A stretch of 64,000 nucleotides of DNA, taken from positions 912,886-976,885 of the forward strand of contig CM082597.2 of assembly GCA_040954595.2 (NCBI GenBank), written 5' to 3'. A program made the translations under genes and the position numbers. Origin of the DNA: Balanoglossus misakiensis. Taxonomy: Eukaryota; Animalia; Hemichordata. Each line of letters opens with the position of its first letter. Within the stretch, counting starts at the first letter, position 1. A model generated the notes under the pieces. It was given only the letters and a program-made list of their open reading frames with translations, ran no database searches and was not told the origin of the DNA. This document shows, one piece after another, positions 13,359 through 52,058 of this stretch.

Positions 13359-14237
13359 AAAGACGAAACTATTAAAACACTACAACAGCATGTCAGCACT
13401 GCCAAGGAAAAGCTCCTTCAAATTGAGATCGAACAGGAACAGAGACAAGACAGCGGATGTGACGCAGATATGTCGTCATCAAGCATGCAGGACGACAACG
13501 AACAAGGAATGGAAAGGAGTCAGAAAACTGACGCGCAGCCGCAGAGGCGGAATTCCAGAAGGAGGCTATCATGGGAGAAAATACAGAGTCTTGATTGGTT
13601 GATTGGCAGGCGGAGAGGCAGGGATAGAGACAGCGTGGCCAGTAAGCGAAGTTTAACGTCATTAAAAAGCTGGAAGCAATTCAAAGAAGCGCGAAATTCA
13701 ATCGCAGACGATTTACACAAGGCACACAACATCACTACGAATTTAAGACAATCAATATCACGTGACTTGAGTCGGTTAAGGCGAAGACCTGTGTCTGTGT
13801 ATACTAATGAGGAGATTGAGAGACAGCTTGCAGACAATCTGAGGAACTGTTACGGTCTGACCGAGGCTGATGCTGATTCTATGGTCAGTGCACCGTACAC
13901 TTGTACGTACGAAAATCCATCCTTCGTACGAGGATGCAACGCAGATGCCCCGGATGAGGACGACCTATACTGCAGTTGCAGCTGCGGACACCAACATAGC
14001 AGGACATCCAGTTTCCGGTCATACACCAGCAGAAATTCCTGTCGTTCAATTGGCAGTTGGACATCACGTGGCACTAGGAACTCCATCCCCCGACGCCACT
14101 CGTTGCCGAAAAAGTATCGCTTCGGCGAATCAGACACCGCGAGCGAGGACAAAATGGTGCGGGAGGTCGTGACCCCGGAAGTTGTGAAAAGTGCCGTCGC
14201 TATGACCAGACAGATTGGCACAGACACGTATGTGTGA
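13359..14237 (+). CDS. GPR156: GPR156-like terminal exon (coiled coil + long disordered tail); whole protein about 661 aa
   Basis: Acceptor ttttacag. KDETIKTLQQHVSTAKEKLLQIE continues the heptads and is in frame with the track ORF 13470-14237, ending in TGA. Confidence 0.85.
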   Translation, partial: KDETIKTLQQHVSTAKEKLLQIEIEQEQRQDSGCDADMSSSSMQDDNEQGMERSQKTDAQPQRRNSRRRLSWEKIQSLDWLIGRRRGRDRDSVASKRSLTSLKSWKQFKEARNSIADDLHKAHNITTNLRQSISRDLSRLRRRPVSVYTNEEIERQLADNLRNCYGLTEADADSMVSAPYTCTYENPSFVRGCNADAPDEDDLYCSCSCGHQHSRTSSFRSYTSRNSCRSIGSWTSRGTRNSIPRRHSLPKKYRFGESDTASEDKMVREVVTPEVVKSAVAMTRQIGTDTYV

Positions 14238-16025: not shown

Positions 16026-19000
16026 TCAACAAAATATCGCGTTGTATTTACTTTCACGCCAAAAACGATACATCTGAGGAACCGTCAGAAATCGAGTCAC
16101 AAGAGAATTCTTGTAGTCACAACTTCCTCTGCCTCTGGCACTCAGATCAAAGCCCGCCACCTCAGTCGGAACAAGCTCCATTTTCTCCAAAAGAACGCCT
16201 ATATACACATCTTCCCACATGAGAGGGGGTGTTTCAAGAGCGGTGGAGTAGAGTTCTTTCACGACATCGAGAGACATAATATAAGCCGGGCCTTCCACGT
16301 AAGTTGGGAATCTTGTATGTGGCCATACTTCATTGGGCGTGTAGTACTCACTTTTAGAATCCCTGTTCGGCGCGTTACCACGGAGCACGCCCCCACCGAT
16401 GAACCGATTCCGCGGCGCAAACTCTGAGATGTATCTTACGATATTCTCATATTTCAAGAAAGTCCCGTCGTCCGTTCGCATGACGTAGGCAGCGTCGTTG
16501 CAGAATTTGGCTGCCCATTGCAACATGGCTATCGTCTTGAAAGTAGTGTACTGGGTACCGTCTTGAAAGTCGACCAAGACAATATCACTGAAGGAGGCGG
16601 ACTCCTTGTGAACCTCCGCCATATGTGATAAATTTGAAGTCTTTCCCAGAACGAAGAGATGTACGATTTTAATGTCCTCCTCGTGGTAAACTCGACCCCA
16701 GGTTTCGCGTATCGCTTTCCTTTCTTCGAAATTTCCTGGCAGACTGCCGATCAGAATGACAAACAATTCAGAACTTGGTGATTTCATTTTTGGACAGAAT
16801 TCCACTTGGTCTATCAAAATTTTGTACTCATTCGAACTTGTGACGTTCTCCTTGTAGTAAAATGGCGTCAAGTCTCTAGACTGTTGATCGTCGATGCAGA
16901 CGACATCCTTTTCGGCGTTAAGGCGGTACCAGTATCTGTACATATCGTGTGCCTGTACTTTGTGAGTGGCGATTGCTTTCCGAATTTCGCAGAGCGATCG
17001 GAAAACACCGGCGATATCAAACCGCGTGTCTCGAACAGGGTACACACCGATCTTTTGCAACAGAATACCGACATAAACGTCCTCGTTCACGAATCTTTTT
17101 GAATCAAACGAAGCTCTGTGAAGCGTTTGGGCGACATCTGAAGACATGAAATAGCAAGGACCCGCGTTGTATGGTGGGAAGGGACGATCAGGCCAAAGGT
17201 CAAGCGGGGTGTAGTTCTTGTGTTTCGGATTTCGTACAGCTGACTGTGCGTAATAAGTACGCCCCCATGAATATTCAGTAGCAGGGGCTTCGCGGAGCGC
17301 GGTGACGACATTTTCAATGTTCACTAATACGTCATCATCAACTTTCATGACGTATGAAGTCTGCCTGCAATGTTTGGTCACCCACTTCAACATCATGGCC
17401 GTCTTCAGCGTCAAGTTTGAATAGGTGTCATGGAAACTGCACTGGACGATGTCGCCATGATACTCGTTTTCCATAATCAGTTTTCGCTGGACATCACTGT
17501 CGTGCGTCTTGCCGATGAAGAACACGTGACTCATTGTAAAGTCTCCCCATTGGCGCTGCAACGCCCATGTTTCCCTGACGGATTTCCGGCGACCGAAATT
17601 TGCTGCCGAGGTCATCACCACAGCAACTAGGTCAAGTCGACCGCTAACATTCTGACACACGTTTGCTCCATCGATAACAAAGTCGTAATCGTTCGGTTTG
17701 ACTAAATTCTGGAAACAGGACACGTTCAAACTGGCTTGTAGTTTTTCATAACACTCGGTTATCGCCCGTGGACTATGGACGTTCCAGGTGAAGGAATTTC
17801 GCATGTAGCAAACATCCGGGACACCTGACACCGGATAAACGAGAAAGTCCGAATGCCGATGGGGGATAATCGATAATTCCCTTAGCAACAGCCCAAAGAA
17901 CACGTCTTCCCATGGAAACAGCTTGATGTATAGCGACGTCACATATGTTTGGTAGGCCACATCAGATGAAAACACATATCCCCTCCCCTCGGGATAGTTC
18001 GGGTACCTATCCTCGGGAAAGATTTCCTTCGGGGTGTAGAATGAGCTCTCAGGATTTCGAATTGGCCGAGATTCCTGCAAAACGTGTCCGATAACCAAAT
18101 TTGTTTCTTTCACAAAAGAGTTCGTTAAAAAGTTGACAATATTTGTCGTCTGCACGTAAGTCGTCACCCTTGTCTTCATGAAGTATTTGGCATTTTGGCA
18201 GTAGAGTGTGGCCCATTTCAGCGCCATGATGGTTTTCAAAGTCAAGTTGCCATAGCTACCGGTATCGACGAAGTCTTCCATAACGATGTCTCTATATCTG
18301 GAGTTCTCTCTCCGGATATAATCCTCGGTGAAACGTTTCTCCGATTCCTCAGGGGTTCCCATCAAGAAAACGTAGTCAACAAACACTTCGCCAATCTTGT
18401 GATCGTTCGCCCAAGATGACCGTATCGTGTGCCGGAAAGACTCTTCGTTCGGAGCGGTAACTATCAGAACAAAAAGTGTTAATTTATTCCCGTGCTTGGC
18501 ACACCTGTTCGGATGATTGATTACAAACTTGTAGTTATGTTTGTTGACAATTGTCCGGTTTGAAAATCTGCCGTTGAGCGTGACGTCAATTTCCCTCATC
18601 GGCGGATTGATCGGGACAAGGTCATCGTAAACCGGTTCTTCTGGTGGTTGGTTTTGTGTCTGGCAGTTCTCGAAAGTGCCATCCAGAATATTTCTACTGA
18701 TATACAGCATGGTTTGACTGGTGAATCCTCTCGTTGCTAGGACCGAGTGTAAACCACAGATGCCATTTTCGTCGTTTGTCACGCTGAGGGCGTTAGAATC
18801 GAAGGCGTCGTCGTGAACCGTCGCGATACTGAGCTGTCTGAGTACAGCACCAAAGTGAACATCCGGGAATTTAAACAGTTTGCCGCGTTTTGATGCCTCC
18901 ACCATTTTGCCGACAACATCCATTGACATGATACAAAATGGCGGACTGCATGATGGAGGGTAGAAGTCCTCAGGCCATTCTGTCCTTGACACGTAATATG

Positions 19001-22000
19001 GACTTTCAGGGTTTCTTTCCGGCTTCACCGACTTTAAAACTTGTCCTGTGACGTAACCAGAATCGGGTGACTCCACAAGGTGCGCGACAACCGCCTCGAT
19101 GTTCACAAACACGTCATCTTCAACTTTCATGACGTATTTCGCAGATTTGCAGTGATTATAAACCCACTCGTATGCCTTCACGTGCATAAGCGTGTTGTTG
19201 TGATTTTCATAAAACCTGGACAGCATGACGTCACGATAAAGTTCATCCTCGTGGAGGAGAGTGGAATGGAAACTTTTTCGCGGGTGATCGCTGATGACAA
19301 ACTGTGCCAAGATTCTCCTACCCACGGCCAGTTCTTTATTTGCCCATACGAAACGCGAGTAACGTCTGTTGTCATACTGGCCTGCCTTAGTCATCACGAG
19401 TATAACTAAAAACACCGGACTTCCCCGCGATTCGTGGTACTCACAACGAGGGTGACTTGTCCAAAAATTGTCGTCCGCGAGAATATCGTCTTTTCCTGGA
19501 ACGGCAAAGCTGTTAGCGCCCACCGGTGGGTTGATGAACTTGGGTCGAATTTTGTCCAAATACGGACTAGCGCAGCTATCTTTATTGATGTTCTCTTGCA
19601 GTAAGGTCCAGTACTTTCGATACATGGGTGCCGTAAAATGGTGCGATGCAATGGCGGCATGTAGGGAACACGGAGTGCGGTAAATGCCGTAAAGGTCGTA
19701 ATGGATGTGAGGATATGGCGCAACGTTGAGTTTATTCACAAGATGTCCAACGTAGACGTCCTCCCATTTAAATATTCTCACTCTCTTCGACATTTCATAA
19801 GCTCTGGTCACGACATCCATAGACATGACGTAAGACGGTCCTGAAATGTATGGTGGGTACATTCTACTCGGCCAAATGTCACGTGGGGTGTACCATTTAT
19901 AAGTTTCTGTGTGTGACGGCCCAGTGCCAATTCTCACCTCGCCTAGATACAAATCCTTCCGCGGAGCATCTTCTAAATACTCTGCCAGATTGTTGTAGTT
20001 CAAAAACACGTCATCGTCAACTTTTGTAAAGTAAGCCGCATTGGTACATCGATGGGACACCCACTGTAGCATGGTCAAAGTTTTCAACACCAGATGTTCG
20101 TACGATTCCTGGAAATTGTATTGGATAATGTCGCCATACTTTTTGTTTTCTGATTCAATTTTCCTCTGAACGATGTCATCTTTTGGCATGCCGACGAAAA
20201 ATAAAGTTTCGATTCTGTAGTTCGGCAAGCTTTTGTCGTACATTCCCCAAGTCTGCCGTATGGCTTTGCGTACATGAACATTGGATGGGTTGGTCATAAC
20301 ACAGACAACAATAAATATCTCATCTTTTTTACCGTCCGTTTTCGCGCATTTTTCGGGATGATCCAAAACAAGGAAAGGTATAGTACCGTTCGCTTTAACA
20401 TCCATGCCTATAACTTGGCCCTGGTCTATCACAATATTGTCAACATGTTCAGGGTCCGGGGACGAGGCTCCTTCGCAGACGACAAATTCTCCCCATTCCA
20501 CAAGCTCTCTCCAAAATTGGTACATTTTGTCTTCATGCACCCAATGTGTGGTCACGACTTCTTTTAGCTCACACAACGAGCGTTTCTTCCCGAAGCTGTC
20601 AAAACCGGGATGGTGAATCGGCTCAACGTTGATATTTTCCAAATTGATTCCAAGATAAACATCTTCAAAGCGGAAAAGTTTGATTCTCAGAGCGGACAAA
20701 CAGACGTCCTTCGCGACGTCATAGCTCATGACGTAACTGGGGCCATTTGGGTAGGGAGGGTAGGTATCATACGGCCATTCCTCTTTTGTCACAAACCACT
20801 TCTTGTATTTCGGATCTCGCAGTGGCTTCGAATCTTTGTGAACATAAGCAAGTACATAACGAGATCTCGGCGCCTTGATGAGAATACTAATGAGATTATG
20901 TAAATTAATGAAAACGTCATCATCAACTTTCATGACGTACCTGGCATTGGGACAATAGAGGGTCGCCCATTTCAACAACATGATCGTTTTCAGAGTTAGA
21001 TTTTGATAATTGTCCATCATATCAACGACGACAATATCGTCAAACTTCTTACTTTCATCCTCTATTTGCCGATCTGTGGATGATGATGTAGTTCGTCCGA
21101 CAAGAAAGATTTGAACAATCCTCTTTCCTAGAAATTCACTGCGCTTTCCTCTTGTGTTTCGGATGACCTCTCGCTCTTTATACTTAGTGGCACCAGAGGG
21201 CGTTATCAGCAACAAAAACACCTCCTGGCCAAACTTCTCAGGATTGTCGTCCAGAGTACAGATGGTTGGAAAATTCACCGGAAAGGAGTAGTTGAAATCG
21301 TTCACAACTTTGTCCAGACTGGCCGCCTTTCTATACATGGAGGACCACAAAGCATTGTCTGAGTTCGACCTATCGCAAAGTGCGCCATCAAGAGTTCGCA
21401 AACCATGCCAATATCGTTCCAACATATCGTCATCTTCTTCAAATTTTCCGGAGACTAACGCCGTTCGAAGGTCACACATTTTTCGACGGCTTCCGTGGAT
21501 ATCAAAGTTGACATTGTTCGTTATTGATATCTGCAGTCGTTCCAAAATAATCCCGATGTACACGTCTTCAAAACGAAATGTTCGGATTGTCAGCGCTTCG
21601 GTTGTACCACGAATAACAACATCTCCAGAAAGCAGGTAAGTAGGTCCTTCCATATAGGCTGGGTAGGTCGCTTTGGCCCACTGGTCGGTCGGCACATACC
21701 ACCGACTGTTGGGATTTCGAACGGGACCTGTACCAATCCGTGCCCGGCCAGTAGCATAGTTCGTTTTCGGTGCGTGTGACAGATGGTCTAATAAATTCTC
21801 CTTGAGTACAATTGTCCGAACGTCTGTTTTGAGAAGATACTGCAAATTGTCACAATGGCGTTTCACCCAATATAACATGGAAATCGTTTTCAGCGTGTCG
21901 TTTTCAGGCGAGTCCAGGAAATCCCCTTGCACAATATCACGGTATTCTGAACTTTCCATTAACACCGATTCCTGTACACTGTTCGCGTTTGAAGAACCGA

Positions 22001-22502
22001 TCATGAACAACACAATAACGTCTTCACTATCGATGAAATCCCGCATCCAGGTCTCGCGCACAGTATTCCGCAAAGCGCCCTCTTCCGGCAAGGAAACCAC
22101 AAAAACGACCAAAGACACCGATTCGGTCCGTGAGCATCTTTGGTCCGAGTTGATAAGAAAAAATTCCAAGTTTTCATTCACATAAAATGAAAAATTACTA
22201 ACTGTGTACTTTAAATTCTGTAACTGTGTAGTCCTGTTGAGTAGATTCCGATGTTTGGAACCTCCTTCGATAACAATATTGCGGTGTTCAGTTAAACTTC
22301 TTGTAGTCGGTATGTTCCGTTTTTCAAACGTCCTAACCAGAGGTCGTTGCCATGGGTACGGAATATCACTAGGTCGGTGGCCGCCGGACAAAGAATTGGT
22401 CCAATAGAGAAGCACCAGAGAATTGAACGCGGAGATCGCGATCACCAGCAGTAGATAGCGCCTTCCCAACTGACTTATCCGACGCAGAAAGCTCGTTGCC
22501 AT
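16026..22502 (-). CDS. 2158-aa type II membrane protein with seven tandem GT31 (Galactosyl_T, B3GALT/B3GNT-like) domains, single coding exon
   Basis: Uninterrupted 6477-nt ORF with an N-terminal signal-anchor (YLLLVIAISAFNSLVLLYW). Seven repeats of about 290 aa carry R..IR.TW, NLTLKT, K.DDD, YPPY..G..Y and EDVY.G motifs or recognisable variants. Approximate spans: D1 22140-21375, D2 21260-20475, D3 20350-19570, D4 19450-18665, D5 18505-17715, D6 17660-16895, D7 16800-16029. Confidence 0.95.
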   Translation of the reverse strand: MATSFLRRISQLGRRYLLLVIAISAFNSLVLLYWTNSLSGGHRPSDIPYPWQRPLVRTFEKRNIPTTRSLTEHRNIVIEGGSKHRNLLNRTTQLQNLKYTVSNFSFYVNENLEFFLINSDQRCSRTESVSLVVFVVSLPEEGALRNTVRETWMRDFIDSEDVIVLFMIGSSNANSVQESVLMESSEYRDIVQGDFLDSPENDTLKTISMLYWVKRHCDNLQYLLKTDVRTIVLKENLLDHLSHAPKTNYATGRARIGTGPVRNPNSRWYVPTDQWAKATYPAYMEGPTYLLSGDVVIRGTTEALTIRTFRFEDVYIGIILERLQISITNNVNFDIHGSRRKMCDLRTALVSGKFEEDDDMLERYWHGLRTLDGALCDRSNSDNALWSSMYRKAASLDKVVNDFNYSFPVNFPTICTLDDNPEKFGQEVFLLLITPSGATKYKEREVIRNTRGKRSEFLGKRIVQIFLVGRTTSSSTDRQIEDESKKFDDIVVVDMMDNYQNLTLKTIMLLKWATLYCPNARYVMKVDDDVFINLHNLISILIKAPRSRYVLAYVHKDSKPLRDPKYKKWFVTKEEWPYDTYPPYPNGPSYVMSYDVAKDVCLSALRIKLFRFEDVYLGINLENINVEPIHHPGFDSFGKKRSLCELKEVVTTHWVHEDKMYQFWRELVEWGEFVVCEGASSPDPEHVDNIVIDQGQVIGMDVKANGTIPFLVLDHPEKCAKTDGKKDEIFIVVCVMTNPSNVHVRKAIRQTWGMYDKSLPNYRIETLFFVGMPKDDIVQRKIESENKKYGDIIQYNFQESYEHLVLKTLTMLQWVSHRCTNAAYFTKVDDDVFLNYNNLAEYLEDAPRKDLYLGEVRIGTGPSHTETYKWYTPRDIWPSRMYPPYISGPSYVMSMDVVTRAYEMSKRVRIFKWEDVYVGHLVNKLNVAPYPHIHYDLYGIYRTPCSLHAAIASHHFTAPMYRKYWTLLQENINKDSCASPYLDKIRPKFINPPVGANSFAVPGKDDILADDNFWTSHPRCEYHESRGSPVFLVILVMTKAGQYDNRRYSRFVWANKELAVGRRILAQFVISDHPRKSFHSTLLHEDELYRDVMLSRFYENHNNTLMHVKAYEWVYNHCKSAKYVMKVEDDVFVNIEAVVAHLVESPDSGYVTGQVLKSVKPERNPESPYYVSRTEWPEDFYPPSCSPPFCIMSMDVVGKMVEASKRGKLFKFPDVHFGAVLRQLSIATVHDDAFDSNALSVTNDENGICGLHSVLATRGFTSQTMLYISRNILDGTFENCQTQNQPPEEPVYDDLVPINPPMREIDVTLNGRFSNRTIVNKHNYKFVINHPNRCAKHGNKLTLFVLIVTAPNEESFRHTIRSSWANDHKIGEVFVDYVFLMGTPEESEKRFTEDYIRRENSRYRDIVMEDFVDTGSYGNLTLKTIMALKWATLYCQNAKYFMKTRVTTYVQTTNIVNFLTNSFVKETNLVIGHVLQESRPIRNPESSFYTPKEIFPEDRYPNYPEGRGYVFSSDVAYQTYVTSLYIKLFPWEDVFFGLLLRELSIIPHRHSDFLVYPVSGVPDVCYMRNSFTWNVHSPRAITECYEKLQASLNVSCFQNLVKPNDYDFVIDGANVCQNVSGRLDLVAVVMTSAANFGRRKSVRETWALQRQWGDFTMSHVFFIGKTHDSDVQRKLIMENEYHGDIVQCSFHDTYSNLTLKTAMMLKWVTKHCRQTSYVMKVDDDVLVNIENVVTALREAPATEYSWGRTYYAQSAVRNPKHKNYTPLDLWPDRPFPPYNAGPCYFMSSDVAQTLHRASFDSKRFVNEDVYVGILLQKIGVYPVRDTRFDIAGVFRSLCEIRKAIATHKVQAHDMYRYWYRLNAEKDVVCIDDQQSRDLTPFYYKENVTSSNEYKILIDQVEFCPKMKSPSSELFVILIGSLPGNFEERKAIRETWGRVYHEEDIKIVHLFVLGKTSNLSHMAEVHKESASFSDIVLVDFQDGTQYTTFKTIAMLQWAAKFCNDAAYVMRTDDGTFLKYENIVRYISEFAPRNRFIGGGVLRGNAPNRDSKSEYYTPNEVWPHTRFPTYVEGPAYIMSLDVVKELYSTALETPPLMWEDVYIGVLLEKMELVPTEVAGFDLSARGRGSCDYKNSLVTRFLTVPQMYRFWRESKYNAIFC

Positions 22503-28203: not shown

Positions 28204-28372
28204 GTGAGTTAAGTTTGGTAGTGCCCCGATGACTGTTTACTTTACCAACTTTCACTCCTGTTTGTCGGCCATATTTTTGTAGATCTGTCTATTAAAGGCG
28301 GAAGAGATCGAAACCCTTGTCTGCATTGTGTGGGGTTGACGCCGGGCAACGTTGGTGCGATTTTGGACAACC

Positions 28373-30064
28373 ATGCGGATTAAAGTTTTCTGGCTGCTGA
28401 CGGGTGTGAGTCTGTGTGTCGTGATAACTCTTCTCGTGGAATTCTTCATGCTGACGACACAAGGGATAGCTTTCTCGAAGGAGGTACGACTGCTTTGGGA
28501 AAGTGATGTTTTCAAACAGAGGGAGCTATTAGATAACGAGATTTCGACAAACGACTTGGAAGAAGATTCTGATATCGCCGACATCGTTGATGACAGCGCC
28601 CTCAGAGATAGTCTTTTGGAAATGCTGATGTCAGGTTTCGCCACCAACGTTCAAGATGGTGAAAACTTTCGTCACGCAATGACGTATGCTGATGGTGAAG
28701 AATGCGAGTGTGAGGGCGAGTTTGTCTACGGACCGTTGAGTGACAAGGATAAACAGCGCCGAGATGACAAGATGGAAATTTGGGAAGATTTGCAGTATCC
28801 TGCCAAGGAACCAATTGTCATGTGCAACGCAATGTCTCCGATCACGTACGTTGGGGGTGGTATAACAGTTGAGCCACTGCACCGTGTCAGATTAGTGGGA
28901 ATCTCCATAGACGAATTATTCTGGCGTTTATTTCTGCAAAATGGCGGTTTTGACATAACTTTCACATCATTAAAATCATATGGTGTAATGACCGTACACA
29001 AGCCAAAAAACATGAGTGAATATGCCAAAGTTCAAGGGAATGGCAGCCCGAAATTAACGATTTCAGTAAGTGGGGCTGTCGAACTAAACGACCTGAACCT
29101 TTTGCTAAAACAAATCCAATATCAGAGTACATTATATGACATTGAACTTCGGGAAATCGTCTCTATTCGTCTGCAAGGTTTTGAGGTCAAAGTCCACGTC
29201 CATATCTATCGCCAACCGTTTCCACGTCTGTATAACACTTCCCCCGAAGACAAAGACATCAGCCGAAAAGTAACCATTGTCACAAAAACATTCGAACGTT
29301 ATGATGTTGTCCGGAAGTTGATAGAAAGTATCAGAGAATTTTACCCGAAAATCAACATCCTCATCGCTGATGATTCGAAGGAACCCGAAAAACTGGAGGG
29401 AAAGCGAATAAAACATTACATCATGCCGTTCGCCAGAGGCTGGTTTGCTGGTAGAAATCTTCTTGTCAGTCAGGTGAGGACCAAATATTTCGTCTGGGTT
29501 GATGACGACTTCATTTTCACCAAGAACACCAAATTGGAAAGATTTCTGGAAAAGTTCGAGGCTCCTAATTCCAATCTAGACTTGATCGCCGGACGGTACG
29601 AAGACAAGCAAGGGAAACTGATCGACAGGAATTTTGATCACGTTATCGACAGACAACGAGGTAAAGATGGCTACTGCATGACTCGCCGGAAAGGGAATTA
29701 TGGCCCCGTTGAGGGCTTCCCACAATGCAATCGCTCGGATGAGGTGACGAATTTCTTCATGGCAAAGACCCTGTCTGTTCGTGATATTGGATTTGATCCT
29801 TCGACGGTTTTGAGCAGGGTTGCTCACTACGAGTTTTTCTGGGATGGTCTTGGTAGGCTGCGTGTAGCCAGCTGTAATGACGTCACAGTCCAACATTTTT
29901 TCACTCACGACAACAGCGATATATATGAACAGTACAGGCGTGGAGAAAACGACGATATTCACTATTACGAAAGACTGCTATATTCAATATATAAAAATAA
30001 TATGAAATGTCTCACGGGAATGGACAGAAATATACAAGATTTAGCCAAATTCCAAGCGAATTAG
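28373..30064 (+). CDS. B4GALNT1: Beta-1,4-N-acetylgalactosaminyltransferase (GT12, B4GALNT1/2-like), 563 aa, intronless CDS
   Basis: N-terminal TM anchor. Motifs VTIVTKTFERY, IADDS, HYIMPFARGWFAGRNLLVSQVRTKYFVWVDDDF, NFFMA and LSRVAHYEFFWDGLGRLRVASC closely match vertebrate B4GALNT1/2. First ATG is 28373 (the track ORF starts at a TTG). Cannot separate B4GALNT1 from B4GALNT2. Confidence 0.92.
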   Translation: MRIKVFWLLTGVSLCVVITLLVEFFMLTTQGIAFSKEVRLLWESDVFKQRELLDNEISTNDLEEDSDIADIVDDSALRDSLLEMLMSGFATNVQDGENFRHAMTYADGEECECEGEFVYGPLSDKDKQRRDDKMEIWEDLQYPAKEPIVMCNAMSPITYVGGGITVEPLHRVRLVGISIDELFWRLFLQNGGFDITFTSLKSYGVMTVHKPKNMSEYAKVQGNGSPKLTISVSGAVELNDLNLLLKQIQYQSTLYDIELREIVSIRLQGFEVKVHVHIYRQPFPRLYNTSPEDKDISRKVTIVTKTFERYDVVRKLIESIREFYPKINILIADDSKEPEKLEGKRIKHYIMPFARGWFAGRNLLVSQVRTKYFVWVDDDFIFTKNTKLERFLEKFEAPNSNLDLIAGRYEDKQGKLIDRNFDHVIDRQRGKDGYCMTRRKGNYGPVEGFPQCNRSDEVTNFFMAKTLSVRDIGFDPSTVLSRVAHYEFFWDGLGRLRVASCNDVTVQHFFTHDNSDIYEQYRRGENDDIHYYERLLYSIYKNNMKCLTGMDRNIQDLAKFQAN

Positions 30065-48646: not shown

Positions 48647-50135
48647 GGACACTTTCTCTGTCAAATCGCCGACGATATTAACCAGTGGTTTGACACCCAA
48701 TTCTCAAATCTCTGATGGGATGGCGACTCAAGAAAATTCAAACATCTTTCAAAGTCCAAGGGAATCTGGATCACGGATTGATGATATTCTTCGGGAAACA
48801 GATATGTCGGACATAACTGGGCATGCGCGCCATTTTGACATCGACTTGGAAGTGGCTGAAATTACGGGTGCATTTAAACCGAGCGGGTTTCGCCTCGGTA
48901 ACATGGCGGCAAGATTCAAATCAGGTTATCTCATTGAAATAGATGACGGTTTCGACAGGTCGTTACCGTTCCGCCATTTTAGGAATCGCTATGGGAACGC
49001 TGCCTCGCTGGTGAACACGCCCGTTGCTAAGGGATTCTTCCCGATTAAAGACAGTTGTGGGAAACATAGTGACGAAAAGCGGGGAAATGTTACAAGCCCG
49101 TCGATTCTGAAACCAAAAGCCAGGAGGATTCTTTCTCCGTTGCCTGTATCTCTTAAGGACAAAATGGCGGTGGATAAAATTATTGGACGAGCCCAGCCCG
49201 TGGGAACTACGTCACCGCACGGTCACGTGACAGTTGTGCCTTGTCATGGGACTCAGGGAAGCGATCACGACAGTGGTCGTTCATCAGGACAATCTTCGGA
49301 GGAAAAAACTTCCCTCGATGAAGAACCTTACTCAATCAGCGATGGGAAGACTATCTCATCTCCAAAACTTGTGAGAAAACAAACGCGACAGAAAAGAGCC
49401 TCAAAGGGGGCGAGAAAAGAGAATCTCGCGAGATTCTTCAGGTCTTTCAAATTGTCGTCGTCGAGTTCGCAAAGTTCTGACCACAGCAGAACAGACTCCA
49501 TTGATTCGTCTGTATTGTCGGATGTCGATGAAGAAACAGCGCCGCCTGTGGAAGAACCGAATACTGACCATATCCTACCTCAGGAAATCGCCTGTGCAAC
49601 AAACTTTGAAAAACAGGATTCACTAACCTCGACTCCGCCACCAACAAGGGCGAAGAAAGTGACATTTGACCTCTCCGCAACTGTTGAAATGTGCGACGAC
49701 GTGAATTATGAAAGCGATGGATTTTTCTCGGATGATGATGACGATGACTCGAGTTCATGCACCGGAAGTACGTCATCGTATTCATCATGGTCGTCATCAT
49801 GCTCCACTTGTTGTTGTTCATGTTGCTCGTGTTCTTCTTGTTCAACGTGTTACTCAGAAGTGACGGTTACCACACTACAGACAGAGATGGACGACGAAGA
49901 AATCTTCTTCCTGCCCGACGATTTCATCGCAGAAGACGAGGATGCGTTGGCCAATCCGACGATCCGTTACAGCCCACCCAGACTTTACACCAGAGAGCAG
50001 AACTGCGCACTCAACGACATAATGCAGAAAAATGACTGCTTGGCCACAAAAGTTGTACCGCCCCCTAAAGAGGTCACGGTAAAACCTGAAGCACCAACTA
50101 GAAAAACTGTTGTAGTTTCTACTGTTTACCTATAA
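48647..50135 (+). CDS. Uncharacterised, largely disordered Ser/acidic protein (terminal or sole coding exon; first ATG 48720, about 471 aa) with SILK and RVxF motifs and a Cys-rich cluster
   Basis: Acceptor ttacag ends at 48646 and the frame is open from there to TAA 50135. Downstream AATAAA at 50739. No folded domain recognised. Confidence 0.75.
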
Positions 50136-51157: not shown

Positions 51158-52058
51158 TCAGTTTGTTCCATCTGGTTTGTTTTTCCGTACACTGTAACCC
51201 CTGTACGAAGACTGGATCTTTGTCGCTGCTTCCTTTTCCTTTGAGACCTGGTTTCGAATTTTGAATCCACGAAAAGATGCTTGAATCCTCGTCGCCGCTT
51301 CTGATTGGTCTTGCTTGGTTCGCCTCGTTTTGAATCCCCTATATCCAGCCTGGATTGTGGTTGCTGCCTTGGATTGGTGTTTCAAGTGTTGTCTGCTCAT
51401 CATGCCTCGATATCCCGCTTGGATTTTCGCTGCAGCTGTGTTTTCTTTAGACTTGTCAGCACTCTCGGAGCTCAATGCGTGGTGCTCTCTTGTTTGGTAG
51501 CCGCGATGCCCAGCTTGGGTTTTATTCACCGCGGTGTCTTCTTTCATATTTGCTTCAAGTTTCATTTTCGATTCTCTCCTCACAAGCATTCCACGGTAAC
51601 CTGCTTGTATTTTGGCTGCCGCCTTCTGTGCGTCATAATAGTCAATCTCCTCTCCCGTAAAAGTAGATTCGGAATCAACTGTTTCTGACGACAATCCGCT
51701 GGAACTGATCATGCGCATTTCCTCTAGGTGGCGCTCATCATCCGAAGATTGTCTGTAGAGTATAACATCCCCTTCCGGGTCAGTTGCACCCGTAACGACT
51801 GAATCAGTTCCTAAAAAGCGATCGTCTTCTAACTTCTGGTCTTCAGTGTCGGAACTATCTGAAGAATATTCCGAGTATTTTTGATAGTTGCGAGATTTCT
51901 TCGGACGCTGACGTTGTTGTCTGTTAGCGAGTGGTGTTCGGGGTCCCAATTCGGCCATTTCTAATTCACTATAATCCACCAGAGATCCCTCGCTCGATAT
52001 ACTGACAATATCGGTCGAATATCGTTCGTAACGAATGCCTTTCGGTCGCTTTGGCGTA
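51158..52058 (-). CDS. SPA17-like RIIa/IQ protein, terminal exon (6 IQ motifs, one degenerate)
   Basis: Acceptor ttttatattgccag. Phase-2 join is in frame with track ORF 51158-51979. Repeated AA.KIQA.YRG...R motifs. Confidence 0.85.

Follow-up and report, generated by a model that had tools for sequence, protein, structure and literature searches.

The window analysed here comprises 64,000 nt of the acorn worm Balanoglossus misakiensis (CM082597.2:912,886-976,885, forward strand; coordinates below are window positions). It contains, on the minus strand, a gene for a protein with seven GT31 glycosyltransferase domains (D1 to D7). The profile PF01762 (Galactosyl_T) matches this protein in seven stretches, with 951 bits against a curated cut-off of 23, which places it in CAZy family GT31. 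The features of the gene are listed below, with active-site residues numbered as in B3GALT5 and mapped onto the domains through alignment.

16026..22502, minus strand: seven-domain GT31 polyprotein, a single uninterrupted open reading frame (ORF) with no internal stop, 2158 aa
22398..22457, minus strand: predicted N-terminal signal anchor (about aa 16-35); hydropathy exceeds 1.9 only in windows beginning at aa 16-17
21399..22115, minus strand: D1, atypical; D-V-R, Gly at the His site, Pro at the Tyr128 equivalent; xED and the acceptor-site Trp and Tyr kept; YMEG
20502..21218, minus strand: D2, canonical GT31 with DDD, KW, ED and His; degenerate in four-domain paralogues
19599..20315, minus strand: D3, canonical GT31; DxD and His complete in 10 of 12 family members
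18687..19412, minus strand: D4, the most degenerate; E-D-D, Arg at the His site; without the G-loop, the xED Glu and the Lys134 and Lys197 equivalents
17739..18479, minus strand: D5, atypical and well conserved; R-V-T, Asn at the His site, YPEG; WEDV kept
16920..17633, minus strand: D6, canonical GT31; acceptor-stacking Trp replaced by Asn in 6 of 6 family members
16050..16769, minus strand: D7, atypical; D-D-G, Arg at the His site, Glu at the Lys197 equivalent, YVEG; groups with D1

An earlier, sequence-only reading of this DNA had placed a mosaic of canonical and Arg-substituted GT31 domains at 16029-22140, a range that covers the GT31 domains and misses the N-terminal anchor and stem, up to 22502. 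The same N-terminal hydrophobic region is present in four related hemichordate proteins (P0002, P0003, P0202 and P0204, see below), and we infer a type II topology and a Golgi location for the polyprotein. The linkers between the domain cores measure 35-69 aa. Cleavage into single enzymes was considered and rejected, with only one RxKR-type site in the protein, located within D2. Pairwise identity among the seven domains is 23-33%, indicating an old tandem array and not an assembly duplication; together with the same domain order in two other species, this rules out an assembly artefact. Public DNA contigs from one sample, which may be the source of the assembly and is thus not independent, give depth in 30 of 30 bins, and 0 of the 12 listed indels (13 in total) lie inside the ORF. 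No second GT31 match was found elsewhere in the 64-kb window.

A whole-length search returned two proteins among 3228 candidates, both from Ptychodera flava: a collinear full-length orthologue (P0002, XP_070547541.1; 73%) and a paralogue (P0003; 44%). A HMMER search with D4-D7 against 1.84 billion representatives, using the best 150 of 10573 hits and cluster look-ups, added a seven-domain protein from Saccoglossus (P0202), a third seven-domain protein from P. flava (P0204) and four-domain GT31 proteins from Ptychodera, Saccoglossus and Glandiceps. The seven-domain order is common to P. flava XP_070547541.1, XP_070542326.1 and XP_070547766.1 and to S. kowalevskii XP_006822772.1; RefSeq annotates the hemichordate GT31 polyproteins only as "uncharacterized". 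Domain trees were made with FastTree (289 rows) and IQ-TREE in quick mode (75 rows); in these quick trees with long branches, domains cluster by position across paralogues and species, the proteins with four domains match D1-D4, and Saccoglossus and Ptychodera share at least three polyprotein pairs. D1 and D7 group together (IQ-TREE; Shimodaira-Hasegawa-like approximate likelihood ratio test, 97), and a single-domain model from Saccoglossus (P0008) falls with this lineage's D2. XP_006822772.1 and XP_070547766.1 have a degenerate D2, and D2 and D4 of P0202 and P0204 have internal deletions or long diverged stretches. By its sequence, the gene is a member of a family of GT31 polyproteins with four or seven domains, present in the hemichordates Ptychodera, Saccoglossus and Glandiceps. 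A search with an alignment of the atypical domains for proteins of 693-2000 aa covered 2891 candidates and found no match at E<=1e-25, which is weak evidence. Four P. flava polyprotein genes (P0002, P0064, P0070 and P0204) each lie on a 14,237,801-long contig, which suggests a cluster.

The motif states given in the sequence-only reading are all present: KTDVR with Gly352 in D1, KVDDD with His653 in D2, KVDDD with His954 in D3, KVEDD with Arg1258 in D4, KTRVT with Asn1574 in D5, KVDDD with His1847 in D6 and RTDDG with Arg2137 in D7. The Asp of the (E)DV motif is likewise kept in all seven domains, and YxEG occurs in D1, D5 and D7. Its use of residue 9 after the late conserved Cys as the C-terminal His site agrees with the alignment, where the His of B3GALT5 (His285, a Mn ligand) has the same offset. 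That DDD and His are lost together holds for the four atypical domains, though in D4 the third Asp, which binds the metal, is retained and it is the first Asp that is missing, along with the G-loop and the xED Glu. Each atypical domain does carry an Arg at one of these sites, but the columns are not equivalent: the third Asp in D1, the first Asp in D5, and the His site in D4 and D7. Among single-domain relatives the first and third Asp are both kept in 137 of 147 domains, so the atypical DxD states are not chance.

We rejected YxEG as a hallmark of the atypical domains. Among rows other than those of the window protein, P0002 and P0003, its Glu also occurs in six scored as canonical and three degenerate; two of the six, P0089 and P0142, carry an unusual DGRD motif. 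D5 does not fall with D1 and D7 but sits loosely (84) beside single-domain proteins with YLEG. The Glu lies in an acceptor-site column, that of Ser215 in B3GALT5 and Gly305 in B3GNT2 (PMC7948508); since it is at an acceptor position and present in canonical domains, it does not signal loss of the metal. Two Saccoglossus single-domain GT31 proteins with YLEG, P0047 and P0089, have odd DxD regions (ESH and DGRD), lack the C-terminal His and are loosely sister to D5.

The roles of the residues concerned are known from B3GALT5, in which Mn is bound by Asp158 and His285, the pyrophosphate is contacted by Tyr128 and Lys197, the donor galactose by Lys154, Asp156, Glu242 and Tyr128, the uracil by Asp126 and Lys134, and the acceptor by Trp198, Phe213, Ser215 and Asp243 (PMC11969544). 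In B3GNT2, loss of the third Asp or of the His abolishes function (PMC7948737). We compared these columns across family rows grouped from the FastTree tree (12 for D1, 10 for D4, 6 for D5 and 5 for D7, 33 together, and 18 for D3 and D6), leaving out the duplicate isoforms P0060 and P0069 and the long row P0081_d3. A complete DxD and His combination is found in 0/33 domains at D1, D4, D5 and D7 versus 15/18 at D3 and D6. The columns contacting the diphosphate follow the same division, with Lys or Arg at position 197 in 4/33 versus 17/18 and Tyr128 in 2/33 versus 18/18; the base Asp243 is kept in 26/33 versus 18/18. The D2 position is complete in only 3 of 12 family rows.

In the window protein, every donor, metal and base residue (DxD, C-terminal His, xED base, G-loop, Lys197 and Tyr128) is present in D2, D3 and D6, with Asn in place of Trp198 in D6. 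The uracil, sugar and base contacts are retained in D1 and D7, both of which lack the two Mn ligands and Tyr128. The Lys197 column holds Glu in D7 of the window, and Glu, Asp or Gln in 5/5 D7 domains of the family; in D1 it holds Arg in the window protein only, and Gln in P0002 and P0003. D5 has lost both aspartates and the His, and D4 most of the donor and acceptor half-sites. Loss of the xED base motif, as in known GT31 pseudoenzymes, is seen only in D4, and there in part; D1, D5 and D7 keep ED, a combination of lost DxD and kept catalytic base as in metal-independent GT-A enzymes.

The positions D1, D4, D5 and D7 are non-canonical in every family member found, Saccoglossus included. The orthologue P0002 keeps TDVR/G in D1, TRVT/N in D5 and RTDDG/R in D7, with IEDD/K in D4; a loss of the substitutions in orthologues, named in the sequence-only reading as the outcome that would speak against it, was looked for in this P. 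flava protein and did not occur. Identity to the orthologue is 0.69 for D1, 0.84 for D2, 0.81 for D3, 0.65 for D4 (the lowest, 158/242), 0.79 for D5 (196/247), 0.83 for D6 and 0.70 for D7, and 0.61-0.74 for the linkers. Of 172 allelic differences, 40 were covered, 31 of these coding and none in D1-D3; among them D4, D5 and D7 have 13 synonymous and 7 non-synonymous changes, about 0.15 of the neutral ratio (p 4e-5), with 4:0 in D5 and 7:2 in D7. Selection on the four atypical domains, as proposed in the sequence-only reading, is supported by these comparisons, and neutral decay appears unlikely because 0/33 domains at these positions have a complete DxD and His, yet the four are 65-79% identical to the orthologue.

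Structure prediction for D7 (48-row alignment) gave a predicted local distance difference test score (pLDDT) of 92.3, a predicted template modelling score (pTM) of 0.91 and a TM-score of 0.90 to B3GALT5 (PDB 8ZWP), so that an intact GT31 fold is predicted. The model of D1-D4 (13 collinear rows) has a pLDDT of 82.5 and a pTM of 0.67, and matches the B3GALT5-type fold with Z 34.5 and a root-mean-square deviation of 1.8 over 263 aligned residues for D2. By a rough formula, the pTM expected for four domains is 0.33-0.41 if all are free, 0.53-0.59 if two are fixed and 0.73-0.76 if three are fixed. As 0.67 exceeds the value for four free domains, some of D1-D4 are predicted to be packed in a set arrangement.

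Other multi-domain GT31 proteins were assessed in an outside set of 266 of 289 rows (the window protein, P0002, P0003 and two duplicate isoforms dropped), which is the top of the searches and not a census, with related rows. The first or third Asp is absent in 50/119 domains of multi-domain proteins versus 10/147 of single-domain proteins, and 29 of 50 multi-domain proteins have both canonical and degenerate domains. Judged by these motif counts, degeneration is the usual fate of a tandem GT31 copy beside an intact one, which favours pseudoenzymes. Two-domain GT31 proteins of Holothuria, Antedon and Anneissia (P0073/P0205, P0078 and P0099) combine a degenerate first domain with a KGDDD (B3GNT-like) second domain; in the 13 first domains from sea cucumbers and crinoids, DxD and His are complete in 0/13 and the base Asp is kept in 13/13. 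On a common origin of D4 and these echinoderm dead domains the trees disagree: FastTree joins them (0.93), whereas IQ-TREE places the latter with their own active partners (95), and an approximately unbiased test favours neither (p 0.5). Multi-domain GT31 proteins, some with one degenerate domain, also occur in Strigamia (P0066), Mizuhopecten (P0120), Onthophagus (P0125) and Branchiostoma (P0005/P0006), and some of these may be merged gene models.

We consider it probable, from the residues kept at each position, that the gene encodes a membrane-anchored chain in which D2, D3 and D6 are Mn-dependent enzymes of the beta1,3-galactosyltransferase type and D1, D4, D5 and D7 have likely lost activity and been retained as scaffolds or glycan holders. 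As a type II protein of the Golgi, it would use D2, D3 and D6 to transfer galactose (or N-acetylhexosamine) in beta1,3 linkage with Mn, D6 probably acting on a different acceptor from D2 and D3. The dead domains would have lost diphosphate and metal handling (the Tyr128, Lys197, Asp158 and His285 columns). As D1, D5 and D7 have kept the acceptor half (xED and aromatic residues), they would hold or present the growing glycan or glycoprotein to their active neighbours, with D4 mainly structural. The role of Arg in these domains would be to occupy the vacated metal pocket and offset its acidic charge, not to stabilise a leaving group. Uridine diphosphate galactose (UDP-Gal) is the donor we infer, because of Tyr128, the LKT motif and the score of D2, which is better against B3GALT5 (E 1e-50) than against B3GNT2 (5e-33). 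P0184, in the D2 tree group, shares a tail motif (by eye) with a Saccoglossus single-domain protein that is filed with B3GALT1/2/5/8/B3GALNT1 (PMC8022947). Mucus or glycolipid glycans would be our guess for the product.

The other branch of the sequence-only reading took the Arg residues as metal substitutes in catalysis, an idea that is weakly supported by the family alignment. Under this alternative at least one atypical domain, most plausibly D5 and next D1 or D7, transfers sugar without metal, its Arg taking the place of Mn or selecting a different donor, and the chain is a multi-step assembly line whose active sites number more than three; we regard it as doubtful. Metal dependence was lost independently in GT14 and bacterial GT6 (PMC7185993, PMC3961637), and D1, D5 and D7 keep xED, Asp126 and Lys134, and also Gly216, so that more of the active site remains than a pure scaffold would require. 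D5, at 79% identity to the orthologue, has a basic residue in the first-Asp (donor-sugar) column in 5/6 members and a second one at the His site in 3/6, and its Arg at the first Asp is old, being conserved from Saccoglossus to Ptychodera. D1 is basic in the metal-Asp column in 6/12 and mostly has a small residue at its His site, and D1 (Arg158/Gly285) and D7 (Gly158/Arg285) resemble a reciprocal swap. Arg or Lys occupies the His site in 13/53 degenerate domains versus about 14% expected from BLOSUM62, where the rows are not independent and the expectation is rough, and the GT-A enzyme WrtF works with neither metal nor basic residues (PMC12595478). Cosmc and the B3GLCT N-domain also lose xED, unlike D1, D5 and D7 (PMC7185993, PMC13597200). 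These observations weigh against dead copies, as do two limits of the data behind that reading: the D7 model depends on an alignment in which most relatives are canonical, and D4 alone has 2 synonymous to 5 non-synonymous changes in a list of 31 coding rows out of 172 differences, with none in D1-D3. The metal-free reading is nevertheless weak, because a basic residue at any of the three sites is present in only 16/33 domains at the atypical positions (D1 6/12, D4 3/10, D5 5/6, D7 2/5), the columns differ and none is conserved in all four domains, most of the domains at these positions lack Lys197 and Tyr128, and the paralogue P0003 (D4 SQAD/N, D5 TQSN/N, D7 TDDG/A) has no Arg in D4, D5 or D7, with Lys only in D1. 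Metal-independent BoGT6a has retained a diphosphate-contacting Tyr and the diphosphate Lys of the relatives that depend on metal, and this Lys is important for catalysis; in C2GnT-L both basic residues are essential (PMC3961637). Such retention is rare at positions D1, D4, D5 and D7, and in D7 an acidic residue or Gln stands for Lys197. Only D5 is a serious candidate for an altered chemistry, and it is conceivable, if improbable, that D5 or the D1/D7 pair would be the first metal-independent GT31 catalysts, possibly with another donor, within a hemichordate seven-module glycan assembly line.

The pseudoenzyme or partner branch fits best, and within it a purely structural role of the atypical domains (folding, stability, membrane spacing or Golgi retention, with no glycan binding and with xED and aromatics kept for the fold) seems unlikely for the set as a whole. 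It is a sub-case of the dead-copy reading and suits D4 best, which lost donor and acceptor residues; Trp198 is also poorly kept across D1 paralogues, and the CHPF domains show neither ion nor ligand in their cryo-electron microscopy structure (PMC13389171). Against it, D5 keeps WED (the xED column) in 5/6 and the acceptor-site Tyr in 6/6, and D1 keeps the base Asp in 9/12 and the Tyr in most. That the atypical domains are slowly decaying duplicates, in frame only through an ORF shared with needed domains, we judge very improbable. They do evolve faster than the canonical domains, their substitutions vary between paralogues, the D3 of P0003 lacks the His, and the deletions and diverged stretches in D2 and D4 of P0202 and P0204 fit decay as well. 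However, full-length domains are kept in four paralogous lineages that Saccoglossus and Ptychodera have in common, the synonymous excess in D5 and D7 points to constraint, and the terminal D7, removable by one stop codon, is kept in 5/5 seven-domain proteins.

Among characterised enzymes, the B3GALT5/B3GALT1 type (PDB 8ZWP) is the best solved relative of D2 and the fold that the D7 and D1-D4 models match best, and its donor, metal and base residues are those kept in D2, D3 and D6; in contrast to the polyprotein it has one catalytic domain, without tandem copies or degenerate partners. B3GLCT, described as the only human glycosyltransferase with two GT31 domains, is an active GT31 fused to a degenerate duplicate that helps to bind the acceptor (PMC13597200). 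It differs in belonging to the Fringe branch and in having two domains, the dead one without xED and His loop, whereas here there are seven domains with three predicted active sites, and D1, D5 and D7 keep xED and a full-length (predicted) fold. In CHSY-CHPF and C1GALT1-Cosmc, motif-less GT31 copies are obligatory partners of active enzymes (PMC13389171, PMC7185993), but as separate polypeptides and not in one chain. The atypical domains share with Cosmc, CHPF and the B3GLCT N-domain the loss of metal ligands, a kept fold (here predicted) and maintained selection. With C2GnT-L (GT14) and BoGT6a (GT6) they have in common that DxD is absent and that basic residues lie near the nucleotide site, but there the basic residues are essential and GT6 keeps the ancestral diphosphate Lys, while here the Arg column varies and Lys197 is lost.

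Dead-plus-active GT31 pairs are thus already known, and what is new is the expansion of built-in pseudoenzymes to seven modules. Our literature search, in which subscription papers lay outside coverage, found no description of a hemichordate GT31 polyprotein family. A GT31 survey lists no hemichordate polyprotein among the 19 hemichordate rows of its supplementary file 1 (PMC8022947), and the main text of PMC4729200 does not mention galactosyltransferases, though its supplementary notes may bear on novelty. Acorn worms have a whole family with four or seven GT31 domains in which the enzyme or probable pseudoenzyme state is fixed by position, and echinoderms also have dead-plus-active pairs. 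The family offers a natural series on how GT-A duplicates lose catalysis (apparently diphosphate and metal contacts first, the acceptor site last) and on the role of dead copies. Each domain can be expressed and assayed, which makes the metal-free question directly testable.

A second Golgi glycosyltransferase may be encoded nearby: an uninterrupted 570-aa ORF at 28352-30064 (plus strand) is B4GALNT1-like (E 4e-75 to PDB 9H6J) and lies about 5.8 kb upstream of the GT31 gene, transcribed away from it. Two further plus-strand ORFs are without a Pfam match, one of 255 aa and rich in Arg and Ser (13470-14237), the other a Ser-rich one of 481 aa with a Cys/Ser-rich run and an acidic patch (48690-50135). 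On the minus strand, a 273-aa ORF at 51158-51979 has three stretches that match the Pfam IQ calmodulin-binding profile, plus additional IQ-like repeats.

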